Assembly (NCBI GenBank): GCA_048468815.1
Contig: DBGBSM010000366.1
Span: 1 to 54,045 of the forward strand
Source: Parabacteroides sp.
Lineage (GTDB): Bacteria; Bacteroidota; Bacteroidia; Bacteroidales; Tannerellaceae
Direction of reading: 5' to 3'
DNA: 54,045 nucleotides
A program made the translations under genes and the position numbers. Shown here in pieces: positions 15,588 to 37,306 of this stretch. Each line of letters begins with the position of its first letter. The stretch's first letter is position 1. The notes under the pieces were generated by a model, which searched no databases, had not been told where the DNA came from, and saw only the letters and a list, made by a program, of their open reading frames with translations.

Positions 15588-15732
15588 GGTTATCGGAGTT
15601 AGGATAATTCTACAACGCAAAGGAAAGGGAAAGGCGAGGGGGAATAAATAGATAAAAAAAATAAAAGATGGACGATCTTCCGATTTAACTTCCGAGGGCT
15701 TTTGAGTAAGGTAACCGTTTGATTAAAAGCCC

Positions 15733-15740
15733 TATATTTG
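15733..15740 (+). promoter_or_regulatory. Bacteroidetes -7 element (TAnnTTTG) for the AraC gene
   Basis: TATATTTG ends 26 nt before ATG 15767. Confidence 0.6.
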
Positions 15741-15766
15741 TATACCCTATCAGAGGTGGCGCTACG

Positions 15767-16654
15767 ATGAAAAAACGGAAAGACGGATTTAGCGGGGAGC
15801 GGGCGTTGGTTTTACCTCTTTCGCTCGTACAGGAGATGGAGAACGAGCCTTTATCGTCGATGTTGTATGTCACCGACATCGGGTATTACCCGAAGGCTCG
15901 GAACCATTTCAGGGAGCGGAAAGTGCCCATTTCGCAATACGTTTTTATTTATTGTACGGAAGGAGCGGGCTGGTTCAGGCTGAACGGTACGGAATACCGG
16001 GTGGGAAAGAATCAGTATTTTATCCTGCCGGCCGGCATACCGCACACATACGGCGCCGACGAGCAAGATGCCTGGACAATTTACTGGATTCACTTCAAAG
16101 GAAAGCTGGCGGGAAAACTGGCCGAGGGACTCACGTTGCCGGTAGAGATAAAACCGCATGTTTCTTCGCGTATCAGCGACCGCATCGAATTGTTCGAAGA
16201 GATTTTCCGTACACTCGAGATGGGCTACAGCCGCGAAAACCTGTTGTATGCCTGTTCGGTGTTTTACCATTTCCTGGGTACGGTACGTTATGTGCAGCAA
16301 TACCGGAATGCAGCGGGCGCCGACTCCGGACAGACCGACCTGGTTACGGCGGCCATTCATTTTATGCGGGAAAATATCGAAAAGAAGCTCACGCTGGCCG
16401 AGATAGCGAAACACATCGGCTACTCGCCTTCGCATTTTTCGATTTTGTTCAACCGGCGTACGGGCTATTCGCCGGTAAACTATTTTAACCGGCTGAAAAT
16501 CCAGCAAGCCTGCCAGTTGTTGGATTTCACGGATATGAAGATCAATCAGATTTGCTACAAAATCGGCATCGAAGACAGTTATTATTTCTCTCGCTTGTTC
16601 AGCAAGGTAATGGGCATGTCGCCGAAAAAGTATAAAAGAGAAAAGAAAGGATAG
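15767..16654 (+). CDS. AraC family regulator with cupin ligand-binding domain
   Basis: TDIGYYP and WTIYWIHF motifs; C-terminal double HTH (YYFSRLFSKVMGMSPKKY); divergent from the MFS gene. Confidence 0.92.
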   Translation: MKKRKDGFSGERALVLPLSLVQEMENEPLSSMLYVTDIGYYPKARNHFRERKVPISQYVFIYCTEGAGWFRLNGTEYRVGKNQYFILPAGIPHTYGADEQDAWTIYWIHFKGKLAGKLAEGLTLPVEIKPHVSSRISDRIELFEEIFRTLEMGYSRENLLYACSVFYHFLGTVRYVQQYRNAAGADSGQTDLVTAAIHFMRENIEKKLTLAEIAKHIGYSPSHFSILFNRRTGYSPVNYFNRLKIQQACQLLDFTDMKINQICYKIGIEDSYYFSRLFSKVMGMSPKKYKREKKG

Positions 16655-16679: not shown

Positions 16680-19600
16680 CTACCCCGCTTTATGCCTGCG
16701 CCGGTACTCCTTCGGCGTAAGGCCGTACAGCGCCCGGAAGCACACCGCGAAGTAACTGCTGCTGCCGAATCCCACCCGGTCGAGAATCTCCGTAACGGTC
16801 AAGTCGGTGTCGCACAAGAGCTGCGCCGCCGTTTCGAGGCGTATCTTCTTAATCATCTCGGCCGGCGATACTTGCGTAAGGCTGCGCGCCTTCCGGTAAA
16901 AGTTGGCGCGGCTCATGTTCAGCTCCGCGCAAATACGGTCTACATCCAGCGAAGGGTCGGAAAAGCCCGCCTTGATAACCTCCGTGTAGCGGCGCAGAAA
17001 CGCTTCGTCGGCCGGCGTAGCTTCGAGGCTCGCCTTTTCGAGCACGATTTTCCGGGCGTACTTCTTTTTCATCTTCTCGCGCGCCGCCAACAGATTCTTT
17101 ATCTTCGTGTGGAGCAGCGACATGTCAAACGGCTTTACCAGGTACGCATCGGCCCCCGCTTCGAGCCCCGCCTTTACTTGTCGGGGAAGCGCCCCGGCCG
17201 TAAGCAAAATCACGGGGAGGTGCGCCGTCCGTTCGTCGCTTTTCAGCCGGCGGCACAACTCCAGGCCGTCCATGCCGGGCATCATCACATCGCTCACCAC
17301 CAGGTCGGCACGGCTCCGGGTGAGCGCTTCGAGCGCCTCTTCGCCGCCCGGCGCCTTCACTACACGATACCAACGGCCGAAATAACGCTCCAGGTACGAC
17401 AGCACCTCTTTGTTGTCTTCCACCAGCAACAGCGTAGCCTGCGGAAGCCCGGCCGGCTGTGCCGCCGGCGGTTCCGTTCCGGCCGACAAAGCCGCCGCGA
17501 GCCGGTCACGGTCGAGCGGCAATTCCGGGGCAACGGCATGCGCTTCGCGAATAACCGGCTTGTCGCCTACGGGCAGCAACAGGCGCATCGACGTGCCCTG
17601 CGGCAACGACTCGGCCCACAGCGCCCCCCGGTGCCGGCGCACGATGGCGCGCGAAAGGCTCAGCCCGATGCCCGAGCCGCTTACCTGCCGGTGCAGGTCG
17701 GGCGTAGAGCGGTAAAAGGGCTCGAATATCTTCTCCTTGTCTATCCCCTCCAGGCCGCGGCCGGTATCCGTAACCTCGGCATACAGGTAATAATTCTCCA
17801 CGGGCCCGAACCCGGCAGCCCCCAGCATTCCGGCCGCTTCCCGCCCCAGTATCTTTACGGAAAGCCGTACGGCGCCACCGGCGGGCGTGAACTTAAAGGC
17901 GTTCGACAGCAGGTTGAAGAATACCTTTTCCAGCTCGCCCCGGTCGAACGTAACCCACAGGCCGGGAGGCAGCCGGTTCTCCCATCCGAAGGCAATGCTC
18001 CGCTGCCGGGCGCCCGGCACAAAGGCGTCGTAAATGTCGCGTACGAAAGGGACGAACTCGAAATCGGCCGGCTGCAACACCATCTTGCCGGTTTCGTACT
18101 TCTGCACGTCCATCAGGTTGTCTACCAGCAAGAGCAGCCGCTCGGTATTCTTACGCATCAGCAGGAACGTGTTTTTCAGTTCCTCCGAGAACGAGGCGTG
18201 CCGCAAAAGCTCGTTCAGCGGGTTGACAATCAGGGTGAGCGGCGTACGCAACTCGTGCGCGAAATGGGTGAACAGCCGCATCCGCTCCTGGTGGAGCTCG
18301 TTGGTTTTACGCTGCTCCAGTTGCTCGAAACGAATGTTGTTTTCCAGCTCCCGCCGCGTGTTCCGGAACGAAATAAAGCGGGCGGTAACCGCAACCGTTA
18401 CCAGCAGATAAAGCAGGTAAGCCCACCCGGTACGCCACACAGGCGGAAGCACGGTGATACGCAACGCCGCGACTTCGAGCGCCCACACGCCGTCGGTGCC
18501 GGCCGCTTTTACCCGGAACTCGTACCGCCCGGGAGCGAGGTTACTGAAGTAAGCCTCGCGCCGGACGCCGGCATCGCGCCAACCGGAGTCGAGCCCCTCC
18601 AGCATGCAGGCGTACCGGCTCTGGGCAGGCGAAACGAAATCGAGAGCGGCGTAACAGACGGCTATGTTCGTTTGGTTCCATTTCAGCGTGATTTGCCGGG
18701 TGCGATGCAACTGTTCGTGTAAGATGCCGGTTTCGTCGCCCGGCCGGACGCGCCGGTTGTTCACGCTAAGCGAGATAAGGTATACCCGCGGCGGCACGGG
18801 GTTAGGGCGGAAGGTAAGCGGGTTGAAACTCACCAAGCCTTTATGACCGGCTAAGTAGAGCATGCCGGAACCGGAACGGGTTATCGCGTGGGGGGTAAAC
18901 TCCTGCATCAGTTCGGGGGCGAGCCGGACAGTTACGAAACGCCCCGAGCGTTCGTCGAGCTTCAGCAGGGCAGACGCGGTTTGCAACCAAATACCGCCGG
19001 CTTTATCCACGGTAACCGCCAGCACGGTACCGGCGCCTGTGGCAGCCGCAGCATCGAACGTGGCGGTAAGCCGCATCCGGCAGTCGAACCGGTACAGCTT
19101 CCCTTTCCGGGAGGCAATCCATACGGAGCCTTCCGCATCGCGCACGATGCCCGCCACGCCGCCTTCTATCCCGGGAACCGTATCTGCTCGCCGCGCCGGC
19201 ATATCGTACAGGTAAACTTCTTCCGTGGTGCCGAACAAGAATAGGTCGGGCCGGAGTTCGACGATGTGCCGGACGTGCCGGAAAGCGCGGGTCGAATCAG
19301 CTACCGGGAACCGGCCGGTCGTTTGGCCGCCGTCGGCCAACACCAGGTCGGAAGCCGTATGGGTGGGAATCCAGAGGCGTCCGCTACTGTCGGCGTACAA
19401 CGAGTAAATGTCGTTGTACTTGAAATCGTACAGCAGCCGGTACCGTTTGCTCCGGATGGAAAACAGATACACGGCGCCTTTGTTGGTGGCGCACAGGATG
19501 CTGTCGCCGCGGATACACAGGCTCTTGATAATGTTGCCGTACAGGTTGGTGCGGTAATCGGCGGTAAGGGGATACACGGTTTGTGTCCCTGCATCCGGGT

Positions 19601-20729
19601 CGAGCCGCAGCAGGCCGGCGCCCTCGGTGGCGAACCAGAGTGCGCCGGTTTTATCTTCTTCCCCTTTCCCGATAACGCCGGTATATGCTTCCGGAGCGAT
19701 AAAGGCGAATTCGCGGGTGTAAGGGCTGTAATAATTCGCACCTCCGGCGTAGGTGCCTACCCACAGCGTACCATCGCTGTCGCGGAACAGGTCGTACACG
19801 GAGCCATGGCTCAACGCGCCGGCTTTTCCCGGCTGCATCGGGCAGGGAACGAAACGCCGCCGACGGCGGTCGATAAAGCAAAGCCCGGAGGAAGTACCGG
19901 CCAGCAAGGTACTGTCGTCGTACTCGATAAGCGAGCGGATCGGGTTGGTATCGAATAGCGGCAGGCGGTTCGTTACGCGCTCCGGCGGAACGGTGTCGGC
20001 CCTACAGGCGTAAACGTCGCGTTCGTCGGTACTGAGCCAGCAAACACCCTGCCGGTCGGCAAGCAGGGTTTGCACGGAAGCGATTTCCCGGTACAGGCGT
20101 ACGGCTTTTCCCGACGAAGGGGTATACCGGTAAAGGCCGGCCGCCGTACCGATATAGAGGCTGCCGTCGGGGTGCTCCGCCAGGCAACGAACCAATGACG
20201 GAAGCGCGCCGCCGCCTATCCGCTCGAACCGGTCGGCCTCCGCACGGTATACGAACAGTTCGTCCATGACGGAAGCGTATACCTGCCCCGAGGCACCGGC
20301 GCAAAGCGCGTTGATGCCCCGGTTCCGGGCGCCGGGATAGTAGCGCCGTATCTTGCCGGTAGCCGTTTCCATGCGGTTGAAGCCGTTGGCGGTGGCTATC
20401 CACAGGTTGCCTTTCCTGTCGGGGGCGATGCCGGTAATGTAGTTGTTCGAAAGGGAAGCGGTGTCGTCCGGCATATGCCGGTATACCACGCACTCGTTTC
20501 CATCGTAGCGGTTCAGGCCGTTGCGGGTGCCGAACCAGAGGAAGCCGTCCACATCCTGGCCGATTTTCAGTACGCTGTTTTGGGAAAGTCCGTTTTCCAC
20601 GCTCACATGGGAGAAAAAGAAAGGGGAGCCTCCACCGGCCGATACGAGCCGGAAGCAGCCCGCGAACAGCAGGCACAGAAATAGAAGGAGGCGCCGGAAG
20701 AGTAATCGGTAAAGCGGGTTGGTTCGCAC
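16680..20729 (-). CDS. Hybrid two-component system 1 (beta-propeller sensor, Y_Y_Y, kinase, receiver, AraC HTH); GTG start
   Basis: GFLWFGTRNGLNRYDG, AHELRTPLTLI, NLLSNAFKFT, SDVMMPGMDG and MSRANFYRK motifs. Confidence 0.95.
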   Translation of the reverse strand: MRTNPLYRLLFRRLLLFLCLLFAGCFRLVSAGGGSPFFFSHVSVENGLSQNSVLKIGQDVDGFLWFGTRNGLNRYDGNECVVYRHMPDDTASLSNNYITGIAPDRKGNLWIATANGFNRMETATGKIRRYYPGARNRGINALCAGASGQVYASVMDELFVYRAEADRFERIGGGALPSLVRCLAEHPDGSLYIGTAAGLYRYTPSSGKAVRLYREIASVQTLLADRQGVCWLSTDERDVYACRADTVPPERVTNRLPLFDTNPIRSLIEYDDSTLLAGTSSGLCFIDRRRRRFVPCPMQPGKAGALSHGSVYDLFRDSDGTLWVGTYAGGANYYSPYTREFAFIAPEAYTGVIGKGEEDKTGALWFATEGAGLLRLDPDAGTQTVYPLTADYRTNLYGNIIKSLCIRGDSILCATNKGAVYLFSIRSKRYRLLYDFKYNDIYSLYADSSGRLWIPTHTASDLVLADGGQTTGRFPVADSTRAFRHVRHIVELRPDLFLFGTTEEVYLYDMPARRADTVPGIEGGVAGIVRDAEGSVWIASRKGKLYRFDCRMRLTATFDAAAATGAGTVLAVTVDKAGGIWLQTASALLKLDERSGRFVTVRLAPELMQEFTPHAITRSGSGMLYLAGHKGLVSFNPLTFRPNPVPPRVYLISLSVNNRRVRPGDETGILHEQLHRTRQITLKWNQTNIAVCYAALDFVSPAQSRYACMLEGLDSGWRDAGVRREAYFSNLAPGRYEFRVKAAGTDGVWALEVAALRITVLPPVWRTGWAYLLYLLVTVAVTARFISFRNTRRELENNIRFEQLEQRKTNELHQERMRLFTHFAHELRTPLTLIVNPLNELLRHASFSEELKNTFLLMRKNTERLLLLVDNLMDVQKYETGKMVLQPADFEFVPFVRDIYDAFVPGARQRSIAFGWENRLPPGLWVTFDRGELEKVFFNLLSNAFKFTPAGGAVRLSVKILGREAAGMLGAAGFGPVENYYLYAEVTDTGRGLEGIDKEKIFEPFYRSTPDLHRQVSGSGIGLSLSRAIVRRHRGALWAESLPQGTSMRLLLPVGDKPVIREAHAVAPELPLDRDRLAAALSAGTEPPAAQPAGLPQATLLLVEDNKEVLSYLERYFGRWYRVVKAPGGEEALEALTRSRADLVVSDVMMPGMDGLELCRRLKSDERTAHLPVILLTAGALPRQVKAGLEAGADAYLVKPFDMSLLHTKIKNLLAAREKMKKKYARKIVLEKASLEATPADEAFLRRYTEVIKAGFSDPSLDVDRICAELNMSRANFYRKARSLTQVSPAEMIKKIRLETAAQLLCDTDLTVTEILDRVGFGSSSYFAVCFRALYGLTPKEYRRRHKAG

Positions 20730-20751
20730 AATAAAAGTTGGTTTATTGCGT
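20726..20751 (+). repeat. Site A, quasi-palindromic; contains the HTCS1 start codon
   Basis: GCACAATAAAAGTTGGTTTATTGCGT; 25/26 identical to site C; inverted relative to site B. Confidence 0.9.
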
Positions 20752-20867
20752 TGCTTTACACGGCCGGATTATAGAGGATATTTAACAATTCGATGCCGAT
20801 TCGCTTTTTAAGCAGACGGCTATGAATGAGAGGAGTAGTATAGTACCTCTATTTTAACGAAATAGAA

Positions 20868-20899
20868 TTTGGAGTAAAAGAATGTTATTTCTATATTTG
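20868..20899 (+). promoter_or_regulatory. Consensus Bacteroidetes promoter between inverted sites A and B
   Basis: TTTG at 20868-20871, 20-nt spacer, TATATTTG at 20892-20899. Confidence 0.8.
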
Positions 20900-20903
20900 C
20901 ATG

Positions 20904-20924
20904 ATAAACCAACGTTTATTGTGC
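20904..20924 (-). repeat. Site B, inverted copy
   Basis: ATAAACCAACGTTTATTGTGC is the exact reverse complement of 21061-21081 and matches site A at 20/21. Confidence 0.9.
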
Positions 20925-21060
20925 AATACTGAGTACTCTTCCGTTTACGTTTCCATCTTGCCGCCTACTCATCGAAATCCATTCTGTTTCAATAAATTGC
21001 TTCAATCCGGAGGTGCGGGCGTCTGTACGTTCGCACAGGCTTTTTCCTTCCTTTCGCCCA

Positions 21061-21086
21061 GCACAATAAACGTTGGTTTATTGCGT
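21061..21086 (+). repeat. Site C
   Basis: GCACAATAAACGTTGGTTTATTGCGT; ends 19 nt before the HTCS2 ATG. Confidence 0.9.
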
Positions 21087-21105
21087 ATCAGCCCATTAAC
21101 CGCAC

Positions 21106-24100
21106 ATGAAAACCGGATTGCACTTACCTCGCCTTATACAGCTTGTCATCCTGATACTTACCGTTTCAGCGAGCGGACGGGCTGCGGCCGATTCCGTTTT
21201 TTTCTTTTCCCACTTAGGCGTGCAGGAAGGCTTGTCGCAGGTAAGCGTACTGAAAATCTACCAGGATGTGGACGGCTTCCTCTGGTTCGGCACCCGCAAC
21301 GGCCTGAACCGCTACGACGGATACGAATTTACCGTATACCGTAACGAAGTAAACAACCAGCAATCCCTTTCCGACAACTACATTACCGACATCGCCGAAG
21401 ACCGCAACCAGCGTCTCTGGATAGCTACCGCCGGCGGCCTCAACTGCCTCGACTCCCGTACCGGCACCTTTATCCGCTCGTATCCCAAAGAGCTCAGCGC
21501 CGGAGATACCAATAACCTTGTGGCGCTCCTGGCTATTCCGCAAGGCCCCCTCTATGCCTTTACCTTCGCCGGCGTGTTCCGGGCTAATCCCGAAAGCGGG
21601 AAGTTAGAAGAACACATCGTGCCCGACACCCCCCTCACCGGTATCACGACAGCCGCCTGCGCCCCCGACGGAACTATCTGGATAGGAACCCAATCGGACG
21701 GAATCCGGGTATACACGCCGCAATGGAAAGAGATACGCCGCTACCGCGAAGAAGTGCAGGGGAACATCAGCGTGCTGTACTTCGACCGTCACGACCGGCT
21801 CTGGGTAGGCACCGAAAGCTCGGGCTGTTACCGGTACGACAGCCTCACCGACACTTTCACTCCGCTGAACGAATCGAACAGCCGGTTGGGCAGCAACTAC
21901 ATCCGGGCACTCACGGATTACGACGACGCCTTACTGATCGGCACCTTCGCGGGCATTTACCGGTTCGACAGGAAAACCGGAAACGTGTCGCTGATACGAA
22001 CCGACCCCACGGGGTCGGGCACCCTGAGCCATTTCTCGGTTCACAGCCTGTTCGTCGACCGCGACCGGACGCTCTGGGCCGGTACGTATTCGGCAGGGGT
22101 GAACTATTACAACCCTTCCTACAAACGGGTTTCGTTTATCCGCCCGGCCGACTTCACCGGCATCCTCGGCATGGGGCGCGAAGACGCACAGGGCAACCTG
22201 TGGTTCGCCACCGAAGGCGCCGGTTTGCTGCGTTACGACCCGCATACCGGCGAACAAACGCTTTACCCCGTTAAACTACCGTACAAGGAGCATTTCGAAG
22301 CCAACATCCTCAAAGCGCTGCTGATTCGGGGCGACTCCATACTCTGCTCCACCCACTTCGGCTCGGTGTACCTGTTTTCCATCCGCAGCAAGCAATACCG
22401 GTTGTTGTACGATTTCAGGCATAACGATATTTACTCGCTGTACGCCGACAGCCGCGGACGCCTCTGGATTCCTACCTTTTCGAGCGACTCGCTGGTGTGC
22501 ATCGACCGCGGACGGCCGGTTTCGGAGTTCCCGGCCGACGGGAGCATGCGGAAATTCCGCTCGGTCACGGTGATAAACGAACTGCGCCCCGACGAATTCG
22601 TATTCGGTACGCTCAACAACGGGTTGTATGTTTACGATGCGGCGAAAAAGACCTGTCGCACCTTGACGGCATCCGGATTGGGTTTGCAACCGCACGAACG
22701 GCTGGGCTCCGTTACCGCCATCGTGGCCGACCGGACACGCGGAGAGGTATACGTCGCCTCCACGAAAAGCGGTATCCGGCGTTTCGACAGGCAAATGAAC
22801 CTGCTCAAACATTACCAGCACACCGACGGCATAGCCGACAGCTACATCAGCACGCTGGTACAAGATGCGGAGGGCACGGTATGGGCCGCCACAGGCAATA
22901 AAATATACAAGCTGAACCGCACAACCGATTCGTTCACGCTCTTCGAGCCTGGCGGGGTGCCGTTGCAGGAATATTCGCTGTACTCGGGCACCGTGGCGCA
23001 CGACGGCACCTTGTATTTTCCCGGCAACAGCGGCATCGTGACGTTCCACCCCGGACAGCTCCCGGCAAACCGGATGCTCCCGGAGGTGTATATCACCTCG
23101 CTCCTCATCGACAACGACCCCGACCAGCCGGACTGCAGCCGTTCTTCCGAGCCGCTGCCCGCCCGCAGCTACTCGGTGGCGTTGCAGCCCCACCAAACCA
23201 ACATCGTGATTTCGTACACCGGCCTTTCGTATATCCATTCCGGCCAAACCGCGTACGCATACAAGCTCGAAGGGGTCGACGCCGATTGGATTCCGGCCGG
23301 CGCCAGGCGCCAGGCATATTACAGCAACCTGCCTTCCGGACGGTACGTTTTCCAGGTAAAGGCTTGTAACAGCGACGGGGTGTGGAATCCGCAAGAAGCC
23401 GTGCTCTATCTGCTGGTAAAAACCCCGTTGTACCGCACCTGGTTCGCTTACCTTATTTATATAGCGCTCACAGCAGCGATTATCGCACGCTTCGTTTCGT
23501 TCCGCCGCACCCGGCGGGAACTGGAAAACGACATCCGCTTCAAGCAACTCGAAAAAGAGAAGATAGAAGAGTTGCATCGGGAGCGCATCCGCCTCTTCAC
23601 CAACTTCTCGCACGAGTTGCGTACGCCGCTCACCCTGATTATCAATCCGCTCGACGACTTGTTACAGCAGTTCTCCTTCTCGGAGGAAGTAAAGAACACC
23701 CTGTTACTGATAAAGAAAAATACGGGGCGTCTGCTGTTGCTGGTCAACAACCTGATGGACATCCAGAAGTACGAAGCGGGAAAAACCGTATTGCAAAAGT
23801 CGCGGTTCGACTTTTCGGCTTTCCTCGGCGAGATGTACGCTTCGTTCGAAAGCATGGCCGGCCAGCGGAATATCCGCTTCGCGCTGCTTTCGGAGCTGCC
23901 GCCGCATTTTTATGTGAATTACGACCGGGAAGAGATGGACAAGGTATTCTTCAACCTATTGTCGAACGCGTTCAAGTTCACGCCCGCCGGGGGAAGCATC
24001 ACGCTGATTGCCCGGCAAGCCGGAAACGAGGCATGCCGGCAGCTCCCCGGGCTTACCCGCGAACAGCTCGACATGCTGGCCGAAGAGCAATATATCTATG

Positions 24101-25215
24101 TGGAGGTGGCCGATACGGGTAAAGGCATCGAAAGCGACCGGGCCGACCGGATATTCGAGCCTTTTTACCGCTCGGACGAAGATATGCACAAGCAAATCGC
24201 CGGTACGGGCATCGGCCTGAGCCTGACGCGCTCCATCGTATGGCAGCACAACGGGATTATCTGGACGCAAAGCTCGCCGGAGAACGGCACGCGGATGATG
24301 TTCGTATTGCCGGATACGGAAACGCAACCGGACGTAAACACGGTAACGGAAGAACCGGCTGCCGGGGAAGAACCGGAGATTGCACACCGAGTGGCGTTAC
24401 TGATGGAAGAGGCCGAGGCGTATGCCCGCAAAGTGGTATTGATTGCCGACGATAACGAAGAGGTGCTGACCTACCTGGAGCGGCAGTTGGCCGACGATTT
24501 CGTGATACGCAAGGCGCCGAACGGTCGCGTAGCGCTGGAAATGATCGGGCAGTCACAACCCGACCTCGTGATAAGCGACGTGATGATGCCGGAGATGAAC
24601 GGCCTGGAGTTGTGCCGCCGCATCAAGGAAACGAGCGATTACCGCCACATCCCGGTTATCCTGCTTACCGCCAAATCGCTGGTTTCGCAAATCGAGGAAG
24701 GATGGGAAACGGGTGCCGACGACTACATCGTAAAGCCGTTCCATGTGCCGCTGCTCCGGGCGCGCATCCGCAACCTGCTGGCCGCCCGCGAAAAGATGAA
24801 AGAAGCGTACGGCGACAAGCTTTCGCTGAAAAGCCTCGGCATGGAGCCGCTCCGGCCCGACGACCGCTTCCTGCACGAATACATGGAAATCGTGAAGCAG
24901 AACATCGCCAACCCCGATTTCGACGTGGCGGTGATTTACCGGGCTATCGGGATGAGCCGGGCCAATTTCTACCGGAAAGTAAAAACCGTAACCGGCCTCT
25001 CGCCCATCGAACTGATTAAACGCATCCGCTTAGAAGCTGCGGCGCGTCTGCTGGAGGAAACGGTGCTGAATGTAACCGAAATCGCCCGCCAGACCGGATT
25101 CGGCAGCGGCTCGTACTTCGCCAAGAACTTTAAGGCGGCTTACGGCATTTCGCCTACCGAGTACCAGGAAAAGCACGCCGGGAAACGGAAGAGTGAAAAC
25201 GGAACGCCGCACTGA
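21106..25215 (+). CDS. Hybrid two-component system 2, paralog of HTCS1
   Basis: Same architecture; SHELRTPLTLI, NLLSNAFKFT, SDVMMPEMNG and MSRANFYRK motifs. Confidence 0.95.
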   Translation: MKTGLHLPRLIQLVILILTVSASGRAAADSVFFFSHLGVQEGLSQVSVLKIYQDVDGFLWFGTRNGLNRYDGYEFTVYRNEVNNQQSLSDNYITDIAEDRNQRLWIATAGGLNCLDSRTGTFIRSYPKELSAGDTNNLVALLAIPQGPLYAFTFAGVFRANPESGKLEEHIVPDTPLTGITTAACAPDGTIWIGTQSDGIRVYTPQWKEIRRYREEVQGNISVLYFDRHDRLWVGTESSGCYRYDSLTDTFTPLNESNSRLGSNYIRALTDYDDALLIGTFAGIYRFDRKTGNVSLIRTDPTGSGTLSHFSVHSLFVDRDRTLWAGTYSAGVNYYNPSYKRVSFIRPADFTGILGMGREDAQGNLWFATEGAGLLRYDPHTGEQTLYPVKLPYKEHFEANILKALLIRGDSILCSTHFGSVYLFSIRSKQYRLLYDFRHNDIYSLYADSRGRLWIPTFSSDSLVCIDRGRPVSEFPADGSMRKFRSVTVINELRPDEFVFGTLNNGLYVYDAAKKTCRTLTASGLGLQPHERLGSVTAIVADRTRGEVYVASTKSGIRRFDRQMNLLKHYQHTDGIADSYISTLVQDAEGTVWAATGNKIYKLNRTTDSFTLFEPGGVPLQEYSLYSGTVAHDGTLYFPGNSGIVTFHPGQLPANRMLPEVYITSLLIDNDPDQPDCSRSSEPLPARSYSVALQPHQTNIVISYTGLSYIHSGQTAYAYKLEGVDADWIPAGARRQAYYSNLPSGRYVFQVKACNSDGVWNPQEAVLYLLVKTPLYRTWFAYLIYIALTAAIIARFVSFRRTRRELENDIRFKQLEKEKIEELHRERIRLFTNFSHELRTPLTLIINPLDDLLQQFSFSEEVKNTLLLIKKNTGRLLLLVNNLMDIQKYEAGKTVLQKSRFDFSAFLGEMYASFESMAGQRNIRFALLSELPPHFYVNYDREEMDKVFFNLLSNAFKFTPAGGSITLIARQAGNEACRQLPGLTREQLDMLAEEQYIYVEVADTGKGIESDRADRIFEPFYRSDEDMHKQIAGTGIGLSLTRSIVWQHNGIIWTQSSPENGTRMMFVLPDTETQPDVNTVTEEPAAGEEPEIAHRVALLMEEAEAYARKVVLIADDNEEVLTYLERQLADDFVIRKAPNGRVALEMIGQSQPDLVISDVMMPEMNGLELCRRIKETSDYRHIPVILLTAKSLVSQIEEGWETGADDYIVKPFHVPLLRARIRNLLAAREKMKEAYGDKLSLKSLGMEPLRPDDRFLHEYMEIVKQNIANPDFDVAVIYRAIGMSRANFYRKVKTVTGLSPIELIKRIRLEAAARLLEETVLNVTEIARQTGFGSGSYFAKNFKAAYGISPTEYQEKHAGKRKSENGTPH

Positions 25216-34012: not shown

Positions 34013-37000
34013 ATGAAAACGAAACTTCTTTATTCATTCCTCGCTTGCATAACGCTTTGCGCCTACGGAAATACGCCGGCTTCACCGCTCGGCGACCGGC
34101 TCCACCGCGTAACCGAAGAAATGAAATGGGTCAATCCGCAGGCGATGCACCGTTACCTGGCCGATATAAAACGGCATCACGGGGCGGACACGGTTGCACT
34201 CGGGCAAAAATTAATGCGGCTGGAAACCCGGCTACCGGTCGTACAACAATCGCTCGCCACGCCGGCCGATACGGCGCGAGCCATCGGGCAAGCCGAAGAA
34301 CTACTGACGTTAAAGCGGGAAATCATGCTGGCTAACCCGTTACTCGACGGCGACAAAATCCTCGTAGCACGCTACCGGCTGGGCGATAAGGCCCGTAAAG
34401 CGATGGCGCCCGACTTGGGCACCGCCCCCAACAACTGGTCGTCGCTGCTCTCGTCGCGCCGGCGCGGATACGATGCCGAGATAGCGGTACTTTCCGGTTT
34501 ACGGGGCGAACGGCACATGCAAACCGTTTACAAACCGGAATCGGACGTACCGGTTTCCGACATCCAGCTCCATTGGGATGCCGGCCGCATCCTTTTCTCG
34601 TCGCTCGACTCGGCCCGTAAATGGAATATCTACGAAGTCGGCATCGACGGAAAAGGGCTTCGCCAAGCAATCACGATAGACGAGCCCGACCTCGAGTTCT
34701 GCGATGCGAACTACCTGCCTGACGGACGTATCGTTGCCACCACCAATATCGGCTACAACGGCGTACCCTGCGTGCACGGCGACGATAAAGTGGCCAACCT
34801 CGTTTCGTACGACCCGCAAACCGGCCGCATGCAACGGCTTACGTTCGACCAGGACGGAAACTGGAATCCGGTGGTGATTCCGAACGGCCGCATTCTGTAT
34901 ACCCGTTGGGAATACACCGACCTGACGCACTACTTCTCGCGCATGGTGATGCACATGAACCCGGACGGTACCGAAAACAAGGCGCTCTACGGAAGCGGTT
35001 CGTACTTTCCGAACAGCACGTTCGACGTAAAGCCGGTTTCCAACACGAACAACCGGTTTATCGGCATCGTTTCCGGCCACCACGGCATCGCCCGCTCCGG
35101 GCGTCTTATCCTGTTCGACCCCGCCAAAGGACGGCAGGAAGAAAAGGGAATGATACAGGAATTACCTTTCAGTACCCGCCCCATCGTACCGGAAATCAAA
35201 GACGAGCTGGTCGACGGAGTATGGCCGCAATTTATCAAGCCCTACCCGTTGAACGAAACCTATTACCTGGTTGCAGCCAAGCCCTATCCGGATGCTTTAT
35301 GGGGCATCTATTTAACGGATACGTTCGATAATCTCACGCTGATAGCCGAAACCGAAGGCGAAGGATTTATCTCGCCCATCCCGGTGCGGCAAACGGAAAC
35401 CCCGCCGGTGATTCCTTCCAAAATCAAGCCGGGAGAGAAAACCGCAACGGTTTTCATACAGGATATTTACGAAGGAGAAGGCACCCAAGGCGTTCCGCGC
35501 GGTACGGTGAAAGCCCTCCGTGTGTTCGCCTACGAGTATGCGTATGTAAAGGCTCCCTCCGACCACGACGCACAAGGTATCCAGAGCGGATGGGACATCA
35601 AGCGGGTACTGGGAACCGTTCCGGTGGAAGCCGACGGCTCGGCGCTCTTCACCATCCCCGCCAACACGCCGGTTTCGCTCCAGCCGCTCGACGAGCACGG
35701 AGCCGCCGTGCAGTGGATGCGTAGCTGGATTGCCGGGATGCCCGGCGAAATCGTATCGTGCATCGGTTGCCACGAAGACCAGAATAAAATTCCGATTCCC
35801 AAGCGCACGATGGCTTCGCAGATTACGCCGCATAGGTTACAACAGCCCGAAGGCGGCGTACGGCCGTTTACGTTCCGGCTGGAAGTGCAACCGGTGCTCG
35901 ACCGCCACTGTGTATCGTGCCACAACGGCGAAAAAGACATTCCCGACTTCCGGAAAGACCGGATGGTAGTATACAAACGGGGCATCGCCACCAAAATAGA
36001 GCGGCATTTCGACCAAAGTTACCTCGACCTGCATCCGTACGTGTACCGGCAAGGCCCCGAGGCCGACATCCGCGTATTGAAACCCTACGAATATTATGTA
36101 AACAACAGCGAATTGATACGGCTGTTGGAAAACGGCCACCACGGCGTTACCCTGCCGGATGCCGACCGGCGCACGTTGTATACCTGGATCGACCTGAACG
36201 TGCCGTATTTCGGCGCCTTTACCCAACTCGACCTGAAAAAAGAGGCGCCCGCCTGCCAGGTACAGCGCCGGATGGAACTGGCTGAAAAGTACAGCGGGGT
36301 AAAAGTAGACTGGCAAAAGGAAATAGCCGATTATGCCGCCTGGCTGAAAACGCATGCCGGCGAAAATACCGCAACCTCCACACCGGCACCGGCCCCGAAG
36401 CGGCCGGCTACCCCCCGGGTAAAAGGATTTCCTTTCGATGCGGACGCAGCCAAACAGAAACAAAACGGCCGCTCCTCGCGGACACTGACGGTAGCGCCCG
36501 GCCTTACCATCGAATTAGTTTGGATTCCCGCCGGAAAATTCGTGATGGGAGATAACGCCGACCCGTCGGCTTCGCCCGCATTCGCCGCAGAAGTAAAGAA
36601 AGGATTCTGGATGAGCGCCACCGAAATTACAAACGAACAGTTCAACGCCTTATTTCCGGAACACGACAGCCGGTATATCGGTCAGCGCTGGAAAGACCAT
36701 ACCACGCCCGGCTATCCGGCCAATCGCCCGGAACAACCGGTTATCCGGGTAAGCTGGGACGAAGCGAACGCTTTCTGCCTGGCGCTCGGCGAAAAGCACG
36801 AGTGCCGCATCGCGCTGCCTACCGAAACCCAATGGGAATGGGCGGCCCGCGCCGGCTCGGGCGAACCGTTCTGGTACGGCGGTACCGAAGCTGATTTCGG
36901 CGCATACGAGAACCTGGCCGACAGCACGCTGGCAGACCTGGCCGTACAAGGCGTAAACCCGGTTCCGATGTCGGCAACCAACCCGATGCGCGCCTTCTGG

Positions 37001-37306
37001 GATTACCAGCCGAAAGTGAAAGAAGTAACCGACGGACGCCTGATTGCCGGAAGCCCGGCAGCCTACCGCCCCAATCCGTGGGGCTTGTACGATATGCACG
37101 GTAACGTGGCCGAATGGACCTCGTCGGACGCGCAACCGTATCCGCTCGGTAAACGGCCGGCCGACAGGATAGAGAAAAAGGTGGTTCGCGGCGGCTCGTG
37201 GATAGAGCGGCCCCGACAGGCGACGGCAGCGGTGCGTAAGGCTTACTATCCTTGGCAACGTCCTTTTCAGGTGGGTTTCCGGATTGTGATGGAAGAAACG
37301 GAATAA
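34013..37306 (+). CDS. Secreted multidomain protein: beta-propeller/hydrazine-synthase-alpha-like region, two CxxCH motifs, C-terminal FGE/SUMF1-type domain
   Basis: GTVPVEADGSALFTIPANTP, SCIGCHE, HCVSCHN, LPTETQWEWAARAG, NPWGLYDMHGNVAEW, RGGSW and VGFRIV motifs. Confidence 0.8.
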   Translation: MKTKLLYSFLACITLCAYGNTPASPLGDRLHRVTEEMKWVNPQAMHRYLADIKRHHGADTVALGQKLMRLETRLPVVQQSLATPADTARAIGQAEELLTLKREIMLANPLLDGDKILVARYRLGDKARKAMAPDLGTAPNNWSSLLSSRRRGYDAEIAVLSGLRGERHMQTVYKPESDVPVSDIQLHWDAGRILFSSLDSARKWNIYEVGIDGKGLRQAITIDEPDLEFCDANYLPDGRIVATTNIGYNGVPCVHGDDKVANLVSYDPQTGRMQRLTFDQDGNWNPVVIPNGRILYTRWEYTDLTHYFSRMVMHMNPDGTENKALYGSGSYFPNSTFDVKPVSNTNNRFIGIVSGHHGIARSGRLILFDPAKGRQEEKGMIQELPFSTRPIVPEIKDELVDGVWPQFIKPYPLNETYYLVAAKPYPDALWGIYLTDTFDNLTLIAETEGEGFISPIPVRQTETPPVIPSKIKPGEKTATVFIQDIYEGEGTQGVPRGTVKALRVFAYEYAYVKAPSDHDAQGIQSGWDIKRVLGTVPVEADGSALFTIPANTPVSLQPLDEHGAAVQWMRSWIAGMPGEIVSCIGCHEDQNKIPIPKRTMASQITPHRLQQPEGGVRPFTFRLEVQPVLDRHCVSCHNGEKDIPDFRKDRMVVYKRGIATKIERHFDQSYLDLHPYVYRQGPEADIRVLKPYEYYVNNSELIRLLENGHHGVTLPDADRRTLYTWIDLNVPYFGAFTQLDLKKEAPACQVQRRMELAEKYSGVKVDWQKEIADYAAWLKTHAGENTATSTPAPAPKRPATPRVKGFPFDADAAKQKQNGRSSRTLTVAPGLTIELVWIPAGKFVMGDNADPSASPAFAAEVKKGFWMSATEITNEQFNALFPEHDSRYIGQRWKDHTTPGYPANRPEQPVIRVSWDEANAFCLALGEKHECRIALPTETQWEWAARAGSGEPFWYGGTEADFGAYENLADSTLADLAVQGVNPVPMSATNPMRAFWDYQPKVKEVTDGRLIAGSPAAYRPNPWGLYDMHGNVAEWTSSDAQPYPLGKRPADRIEKKVVRGGSWIERPRQATAAVRKAYYPWQRPFQVGFRIVMEETE

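Follow-up and report, generated by a model that had tools for sequence, protein, structure and literature searches.

The 376-bp gap between two back-to-back genes for hybrid two-component sensor/regulators (HTCS1 and HTCS2) in Parabacteroides sp. may be a compound DNA-inversion switch, in which three serine-invertase sites (A, B and C) bound two segments (S1 and S2) and a protein encoded on another contig, P0001, is the most likely enzyme; the chances of this reading as a whole seem evenly balanced. The gap lies in a window of 54,045 nucleotides, the whole stretch of DNA analysed, which is contig DBGBSM010000366.1 (C366) of the source assembly GCA_048468815.1 (G000; 4.02 Mb in 624 contigs, 88% complete). 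Both orientations of S2, a promoter-less segment on the HTCS2 side of the gap, exist in nature, and both types of junction occur within one sequenced sample.

An earlier note on this DNA had described a two-site, one-segment element. The A/B pair of that description is real, with 21-nt inverted repeats at 20726-20746 and 20904-20924 that are 95% complementary and have 157 nt between them; what had been overlooked is a third site, C, and with it the second segment, S2. The 21-nt repeats of B and C are complementary at 21/21 positions, with 136 nt between them. All three sites are 26-bp quasi-palindromes, each made of 12-bp imperfect inverted half-sites around a 2-bp centre. Site A (20726..20751, + strand) reads GCACAATAAAAG.TT.GGTTTATTGCGT, site C (21061..21086, + strand) reads GCACAATAAACG.TT.GGTTTATTGCGT and site B (20899..20924, - strand), which is common to S1 and S2, reads GCATGATAAACC.AA.CGTTTATTGTGC. 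Because the arms are near-palindromic, the direction of a site is set by its centre (TT in A and C, AA in B). B is inverted relative to A and C, and the latter two are in direct orientation and 25/26 identical (one mismatch). There are, then, three sites with compatible cores, one of them shared by both segments, as in a shufflon or other multiple-inversion system; in contrast to classical shufflons, the segments rearranged here are not coding. The motif ATAAACNNNNGTTTAT, at up to one mismatch, occurs three times in the window compared with 0.12 expected, and three occurrences were reached in 0/100 shuffles. A, B and C are almost certainly invertase sites. A text search of the literature with the literal site sequence returned unrelated primers only.

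A search of 41 related genomes with 20300-21500 gave some match in 13, G000 included, and the orthologous gap was found in one searched genome only, G001, which belongs to the same genus. In G001 the piece B-S2-C is on the opposite strand to both of its flanks, S2 being reversed exactly between B and C, and S2 of G000 (20925..21060, 136 bp) can be aligned along its whole length with S2 of G001 once the latter is reverse-complemented. A 17-nt inverted likeness (88%) between 20695-20711, in the 5' coding sequence of HTCS1 by A, and 20927-20943, at the end of S2 by B, was set aside because it is absent from G001; it is probably a matter of chance, or else a trace of the origin of the third site.

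Among public sequencing runs, two held the locus as contigs (X1 and X2; shares 0.15 and 0.13), X3 gave one unrelated piece and X4 none. One X1 contig runs through A, S1 and B and continues behind 20924 with TGGGCGAAA, the reverse complement of 21052-21060, which is the far end of S2. In a second X1 contig B-S2-C is preceded by TGATACGCA, the reverse complement of 21082-21090 on the HTCS2-side flank of C. Both loose ends are the junctions expected from a reversed S2. The same run also contains the unreversed junction at C, as a 39-nt contig (record 5; 21052-21090, 0 mismatches), and record 10 of X2 has the unreversed junction at B. Two things weigh against taking these data as one population caught switching: the run evidence consists of low-depth contigs (depth 2.8-4.2) and not of raw reads, and X1 may hold two strains instead.

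The earlier note had taken the repeats for sites of an invertase encoded elsewhere, and they are indeed part of a family of invertible segments with promoters that extends across the genome. At up to four mismatches the 21-mer has 17 matches in G000. Inverted pairs 140-170 bp apart are present on C181 (2068/2215), C225 (20909/21073), C253 (1/156) and C534 (14372/14541), and single sites are at or near contig ends (the start of C253, the start of C338, C130 at 100 nt from the end and C181 at 134 nt). At five loci (site B of C366, C225, C534, C253 and C336) the -7 box TAnnTTTG is fused to the site as TAnnTTTGCA-ATAAAC; no -7 box is fused to the site at C181a. Segments of the family precede SusC/SusD pairs (C181, twice) and a third HTCS gene (C225). 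The pattern GCACAATAAACNNNNGTTT was present in 4/101 family genomes, namely 3/3 of the genus (8, 8 and 3 matches) and 1/98 of the others (a single match), and its reversed control gave one match. A strict promoter-plus-site scan of the genome contigs returned 1 record, this pattern being too narrow to map the family.

The inner halves of A, B and C carry no markers, and the point of crossover was read from the family member on C534, whose segment is reversed in G001 (C29). In G000 the C534 sites are ACATACTAAACG.TT.GGTTTATTGTGC on the left and GCACAATAAAGG.AA.CGTTTGATGTGC on the right; in G001 they are ACATACTAAACG.TT.CCTTTATTGTGC and GCACAATAAACC.AA.CGTTTGATGTGC. Since the inner halves (GGTTTATTGTGC and GCACAATAAAGG) have swapped sides between the two genomes and the outer halves and the TT/AA centre are fixed, exchange took place within the central 2 bp or at their edges. 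Centres match within pairs (TT/AA on C366, C225 and C534, TA/TA at C181a, and AT/AT on C253 and on G002:C8), and the positions next to the centre differ in 2/5 G000 pairs. Serine invertases make a 2-bp staggered cut, and their hix and gix sites have a 12+2+12 layout: two imperfect inverted half-sites of 12 bp, ending in AAAC(C/G), flank a 2-bp crossover core on which direction depends, for a total of 26 bp. Exchange at the central 2 bp, the compatible centres within pairs and the 12+2+12 layout are the reasons for reading the behaviour of these sites as that of serine-invertase sites.

Inverted repeats of this kind might also be operators of a dimeric transcription factor that co-regulates both HTCS genes, with no recombination at all, since each site is a near-palindrome (AATAAAC-N4-GTTTATT) and one site overlaps the start region of each gene. 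However, two site-bounded segments, S2 and that on C534, are reversed between genomes exactly at their sites, half-sites have been exchanged at C534, both junction types are found in one metagenome run, and identity between sites reaches the non-palindromic spacer and flanks (25/26 and 21/21). It is very improbable that the sites are operators only.

As had been noted before, there is no recombinase in the window; the single PF00239 hit and the eight PF00589 hits of G000 are all on other contigs. P0001 (C154:10180-10764; 194 aa) is the sole G000 protein with the resolvase domain PF00239 (115 bits, above the cut-off). Its nearest solved relatives are the DNA-invertase chains 4m6f and 3uj3, followed by gamma-delta resolvase. 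The G001 protein is identical to it (100%) and that of G002 is 98% identical; in G007, from another genus, the closest protein reaches 48%, and G015 has no match. Its gene has housekeeping neighbours (a gyrB/parE-like gene, a GNAT gene and the gene for ribosomal protein S1). P0001 is probably the invertase that acts on the sites, and no fewer than four other inverted site pairs in the genome are most likely also its substrates. Several points weigh against this assignment. The score of P0001 against NF009949, the 'master DNA invertase Mpi family', is 247.9 bits (residues 1-190), below the cut-off of 272; its gene adjoins no site; and what links it to the sites is their co-occurrence and the site anatomy only.

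One of the eight tyrosine recombinases (PF00589) of G000 could be responsible for the inversions instead of an Mpi-like serine enzyme. According to the available text of PMC4747536, the Bacteroides master invertases Tsr0667 and Tsr19 are tyrosine enzymes, and with an assembly that is 88% complete a local enzyme could be missing. However, none of the eight genes is beside a family segment, the nearest being 14 kb away on C225, and P0001 is conserved at 98-100% exactly in the genus that carries the sites. The sites themselves also argue for a serine enzyme. The crossover at C534 falls within the central 2 bp, where a 6-bp overlap would differ at 2/6 positions between partner sites; the central 2 nt are the one part of the sites that agrees in every pair; and hix and gix sites are likewise laid out as 12+2+12. 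That a tyrosine recombinase inverts these segments is thus improbable.

Other members of the site family show how it is used elsewhere in the genome. On C225 (20909-21098; L017) there is a two-site inverton with TATATTTG fused to its right site, in the same orientation in G001 (C164), and the ATG of the third HTCS gene (1327 aa) is at 21231, 133 nt past the site. A 623-aa open reading frame (ORF) to the left of this segment was considered as a second, divergent target and rejected, because it lacks a Pfam match and a 587-aa ORF on the opposite strand overlaps it. For the same reasons, and because of a terminator-like hairpin there, C225 is read as an ordinary on/off inverton; given that this hairpin is on its other side, the off orientation appears to be insulated. 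The end of C181 (26908-27067) lies inside a family segment, just past a TATTTTTG box, and C338:1-22 is the matching site half. The two contig ends, which have AGTAA in common, seem to be the parts of a single inverton, upstream of a SusC/SusD pair, that was cut in assembly. To the right of the C534 inverton, a stretch of ~110 bp (C534:14690-14801; L019) has more than 20 matches in G001 at 73-82% identity and is a dispersed short repeat.

The promoter of the proposed switch is in S1 (20747..20903), the 157-bp stretch that the 21-nt repeats A and B enclose. It is of the Bacteroidetes type (20868..20899, + strand), consisting of TTTG (20868-20871), N20 and TATATTTG (20892-20899), and it was correctly placed by the earlier note as the only canonical promoter in the gap. 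On both strands of 20700-21110 it is the only -33/-7 promoter within one mismatch of consensus. The box at 20892 is the sole perfect TAnnTTTG on the + strand of that interval, and the - strand has none at up to one mismatch, in keeping with what had been reported for HTCS1. Between the end of the -7 box and the 21-nt repeat of B there are 4 nt, also as reported; the site really being 26 bp long, the last G of the box is therefore the first base of site B, to which the promoter is fused. S1 has the standard build of the family (site, ~130 bp, -33/-7 promoter, site). Its promoter-proximal 89 nt, B included, are 94% identical in G001, compared with 82-87% in the flanking coding sequence. A sigma-70 style scan gave two weak hits, which are irrelevant to Bacteroidetes promoters, and was disregarded.

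As assembled, this promoter reads via B, S2 and C toward HTCS2, giving a leader of ~200 nt. HTCS1 is placed quite differently. Its GTG start codon (20729-20727) is inside A, as claimed earlier, in the outer half of the site, so that the gene is without upstream DNA of its own, and its protein is conserved from this GTG onward (VRTNPLYRL in G000, VRHNPIYRL in G001). Inversion of A-B in silico, from centre to centre, gives TTTG-N20-TATATTTG, then 21 nt, then the GTG of HTCS1, where about 20 nt had been predicted. Since the HTCS1 start codon is in A and there is no other promoter for HTCS1, it is rather likely that S1 inverts, and there is slightly more for than against the proposal that its inversion drives HTCS1. 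It is plausible, though not proven, that the promoter toggles between the two sensors.

Several observations weigh against an invertible S1. No sequence showed it flipped: in 4/4 cases (G000, G001, X1 and X2) the promoter points to HTCS2, and a search of G000 and G001 with the pattern of a flipped S1 junction found the unflipped B junction only. Among the three sites, A is the most imperfect, being off the consensus by one position in G000 and by more in G001. A break in the X1 contigs at A, which might have been due to heterogeneity of S1, was rejected as such, as the contigs overlap by 21 nt and their ends are not branch-like. The data on S1 orientation are thin, coming from two assemblies and low-depth contigs, and many invertons are strongly biased toward one orientation. 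A metagenome scan with a 21-mer from the promoter end of S1 gave 4 loci, all of them chance matches with no further similarity. In G001 the assembly is broken within S1 (C274:1 and C140:19564; L014 and L002), ~50-60 nt of the middle of the segment being missing; low depth, deletion or heterogeneity may be the cause. A further G001 contig, C233, starts at a site and was rejected as a flipped S1 junction, since it is another locus.

The same observations on orientation and on site A would fit a simpler arrangement, in which only B-C is live, the promoter serves no gene but HTCS2, site A is a remnant or is seldom used, and HTCS1 is expressed from a weak non-consensus promoter; the gap would then be an on/off or high/low gate for HTCS2. 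S2 is indeed the only segment seen both ways, and it is general knowledge that HTCS genes need only low expression. In contrast, the start of HTCS1 inside A means that the whole region upstream of this gene is site plus S1, and no promoter within one mismatch of consensus faces it. Site A retains a compatible TT centre, and a C534 site that is altered at the corresponding half-site position (AAAGG) has undergone recombination after the divergence of the two species. Furthermore, the A-S1-B layout is that of the ordinary promoter segments of the family. A switch confined to B-C is on this evidence unlikely, and an S1 that inverts is preferred.

S2 lies between the promoter (20892) and the ATG of HTCS2 (21106) and inverts, as does the promoter-less downstream segment of a cwpV-type switch, and no TAnnTTTG within one mismatch paired with a -33 box was found in it. 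A terminator-like hairpin (21021..21045, + strand) is formed by GTCTGT-N8-ACAGGC (21021-21040) followed by TTTTT (-6.6 kcal/mol). Hairpin and T5 are on the + strand, between promoter and HTCS2, when S2 is oriented as in G000 and not otherwise; G001 and the main X1 form have them on the other strand. The G001 hairpin is GCCTGTT-N6-AGCAGGC followed by TTTTTT, so stem and T-run are kept and the loop differs, and one of the changes in the stem turns a G-U pair into G-C. X1 differences in the hairpin are within the loop or make the T-run longer. On this comparative evidence the hairpin could terminate transcription, although the balance is slightly against it. Its 46-nt fold is weak (z = -1.86; 10/200 shuffles fold as well), and B and C are predicted to form a 19-bp stem in the RNA whichever way S2 lies. 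This B-C stem may matter more than the hairpin.

Inversion of S2 might even be a functionless by-product of a duplicated site, the hairpin being no terminator and HTCS2 being expressed equally both ways. The weakness of the hairpin and the presence of the B-C stem in both orientations favour this, as does the report that in B. fragilis expression is set by the number of repeats between promoter and genes and not by orientation (PMC4747536, in the text available). However, stem and U-run have been kept across G000, G001 and X1 while the loop changed, with one G-U pair becoming G-C, and S2 is conserved as a whole and is still bounded by perfect sites. That S2 inversion has no function is a possibility to be entertained, but it is rather doubtful.

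If both segments do invert, recombination between A and B would turn S1 round and move only the promoter, from facing HTCS2 to facing HTCS1. Recombination between B and C would invert S2, which in its G000 orientation would put the hairpin and U-run between promoter and HTCS2 and in the other would not. Three states could result. With S1 flipped, HTCS1 would be on; with S1 as assembled and S2 flipped, as in G001, HTCS2 would be on; and in the arrangement assembled in G000 both would be low or off. The gap had previously been proposed to be an either/or switch between the two regulators. The promoter arrangement on which that proposal was built stands. What is not supported in the form proposed is the inversion, as the one observed is B-C, S1 faces HTCS2 in all four sequences and the flipped junction was not found in either assembly. 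Because there are three sites and two segments, and B-C has been seen inverted, the either/or picture probably gives way to a three-state one, in which inversion of S1 is the inferred part. Its full form, a heritable and reversible three-state switch acting on regulators, where a promoter cassette and a terminator cassette share their middle site and select HTCS1, HTCS2 or neither, is put forward tentatively, as it is rather unlikely to hold in every part. Since each HTCS heads its own locus, such a switch would set which glycan the cell senses.

By site anatomy and enzyme family the system belongs with the Mpi regulon of Bacteroides fragilis, and it works like it. The available text of PMC4747536 and PMC3090145 describes Mpi (FinA) as one small serine invertase, encoded away from its targets, that flips many short repeat-bounded promoters; the title of Patrick et al. 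2003, a paper listed in the references of PMC3090145, likens the B. fragilis repeats to those of hin. Common to both systems are dispersed repeat-bounded promoters of the TAnnTTTG type and, if P0001 is the enzyme, a single serine invertase encoded at a distance; P0001 fits the Mpi model over its full length. They differ in that the targets are here two or three HTCS genes and SusC/D pairs whereas those in B. fragilis are capsule operons, that there are three sites and a promoter-less second segment, that the site sequence is confined to one genus, and that P0001 scores under the family cut-off. The core motif of the B. fragilis sites is ARACGTWCGT. The Hin/Gin/Cin systems resemble the present one in site layout (hix/gix), and Gin-type DNA-invertase chains are nearest to P0001. 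Unlike in those systems, the enzyme gene is not beside the segment.

Extra repeats and adjoining segments have been described for other switches. In the IVp-I/large-capsule switch of B. fragilis (Tsr19, BF2766), more repeats between promoter and genes are reported to give lower transcription (PMC4747536), and repeats are duplicated at one or both ends (PMC3090145), as far as the available text of these papers goes. The likeness is the extra repeat copy beside an invertible promoter. However, the tyrosine recombinase of that switch adjoins it, a single gene set and not two divergent paralogues is controlled, and no terminator segment is described in the available parts of either account. IP-ARG-2 of Bacteroidales has two adjacent invertible regions with similar repeats, and one invertase is thought to serve both (PMC8748976, available text). 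Unlike S1 and S2, both regions are there described as carrying promoters, and they are just downstream of the invertase gene, on mobile elements, with resistance or glycan genes.

The closest analogue of S2, on the text available, is in cwpV of Clostridioides difficile, where a promoter-less invertible segment is located between a fixed promoter and the gene and an intrinsic terminator has been proposed in the OFF transcript (PMC2784873). It differs in coming from a different phylum, in being a single segment with two repeats, and in that its own promoter does not invert. Its recombinase, RecV, is a tyrosine enzyme.

Two-component regulators have appeared in inverton surveys: an inverton inside the HTCS gene BT3786 is reported in the available text of PMC10028968, and two-component systems are listed among enriched downstream functions in that of the DeepInverton paper (PMC11602134). 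In the literature searched, supplementary inverton tables aside, no invertible promoter was found before an HTCS gene or between two HTCS genes, and no promoter cassette sharing one site with a promoter-less terminator-like cassette. New relative to the Mpi type are therefore regulators as targets, a genus-restricted site, and three sites with a promoter-less second segment.

In gut Bacteroidales, most known cases of phase variation concern surface structures (capsules, SusC/D-like proteins, fimbriae, S-layers). In this genome machinery of the same kind precedes HTCS sensors, the master switches of polysaccharide utilisation loci. If S1 flips, it would depend on one inversion whether the cell can induce the locus with GH97 enzymes or its neighbour with GH2 and a sulfatase-maturase-like protein. 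If the proposed switch is real, bet-hedging would be in sensing and not in structure, with a clonal population split by the glycans it senses. Nutrient sensing would then be phase-variable under a genus-specific Mpi-like regulon, with a third HTCS under an ordinary inverton of the same family. The layout in which promoter and terminator share a site would be of interest for both natural and engineered recombinase logic.

The two sensor genes are paralogous and divergent. HTCS1 (16680..20729, - strand; 1349 aa from the GTG) and HTCS2 (21106..25215, + strand; 1369 aa, ATG at 21106) have 46% full-length identity, and both have Reg_prop, Y_Y_Y, HisKA, HATPase_c, Response_reg and HTH_AraC domains (Pfam). 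Their 5' coding ends form a 149-nt inverted repeat with 79% match. The left locus, headed by HTCS1, encodes two GH97 proteins, SusC, SusD, a DUF4466 protein, a DUF5107/TPR protein and an MFS sugar transporter; the right locus, headed by HTCS2, encodes SusC, SusD, GH2 and a protein with an FGE-sulfatase domain.

In the gap itself, no Rfam family matched 20500-21300 at E up to 1. A 147-aa ORF (20901-21344, + strand) that begins with the ATG of site B extends across S2, C and the start of HTCS2 in another frame; it is probably spurious. A GTG in site B downstream of the promoter opens merely a 3-codon frame.

Between HTCS1 and the MFS transporter gene, on the opposite strand, is a gene (15719-16654, +) for an AraC-family regulator with a cupin/AraC_binding sensor domain, which would be a second regulator for the left locus. 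In the locus headed by HTCS2, 34013-37306 (+) encodes a protein of 1097 aa with an HZS_alpha middle and a C-terminal FGE-sulfatase domain.

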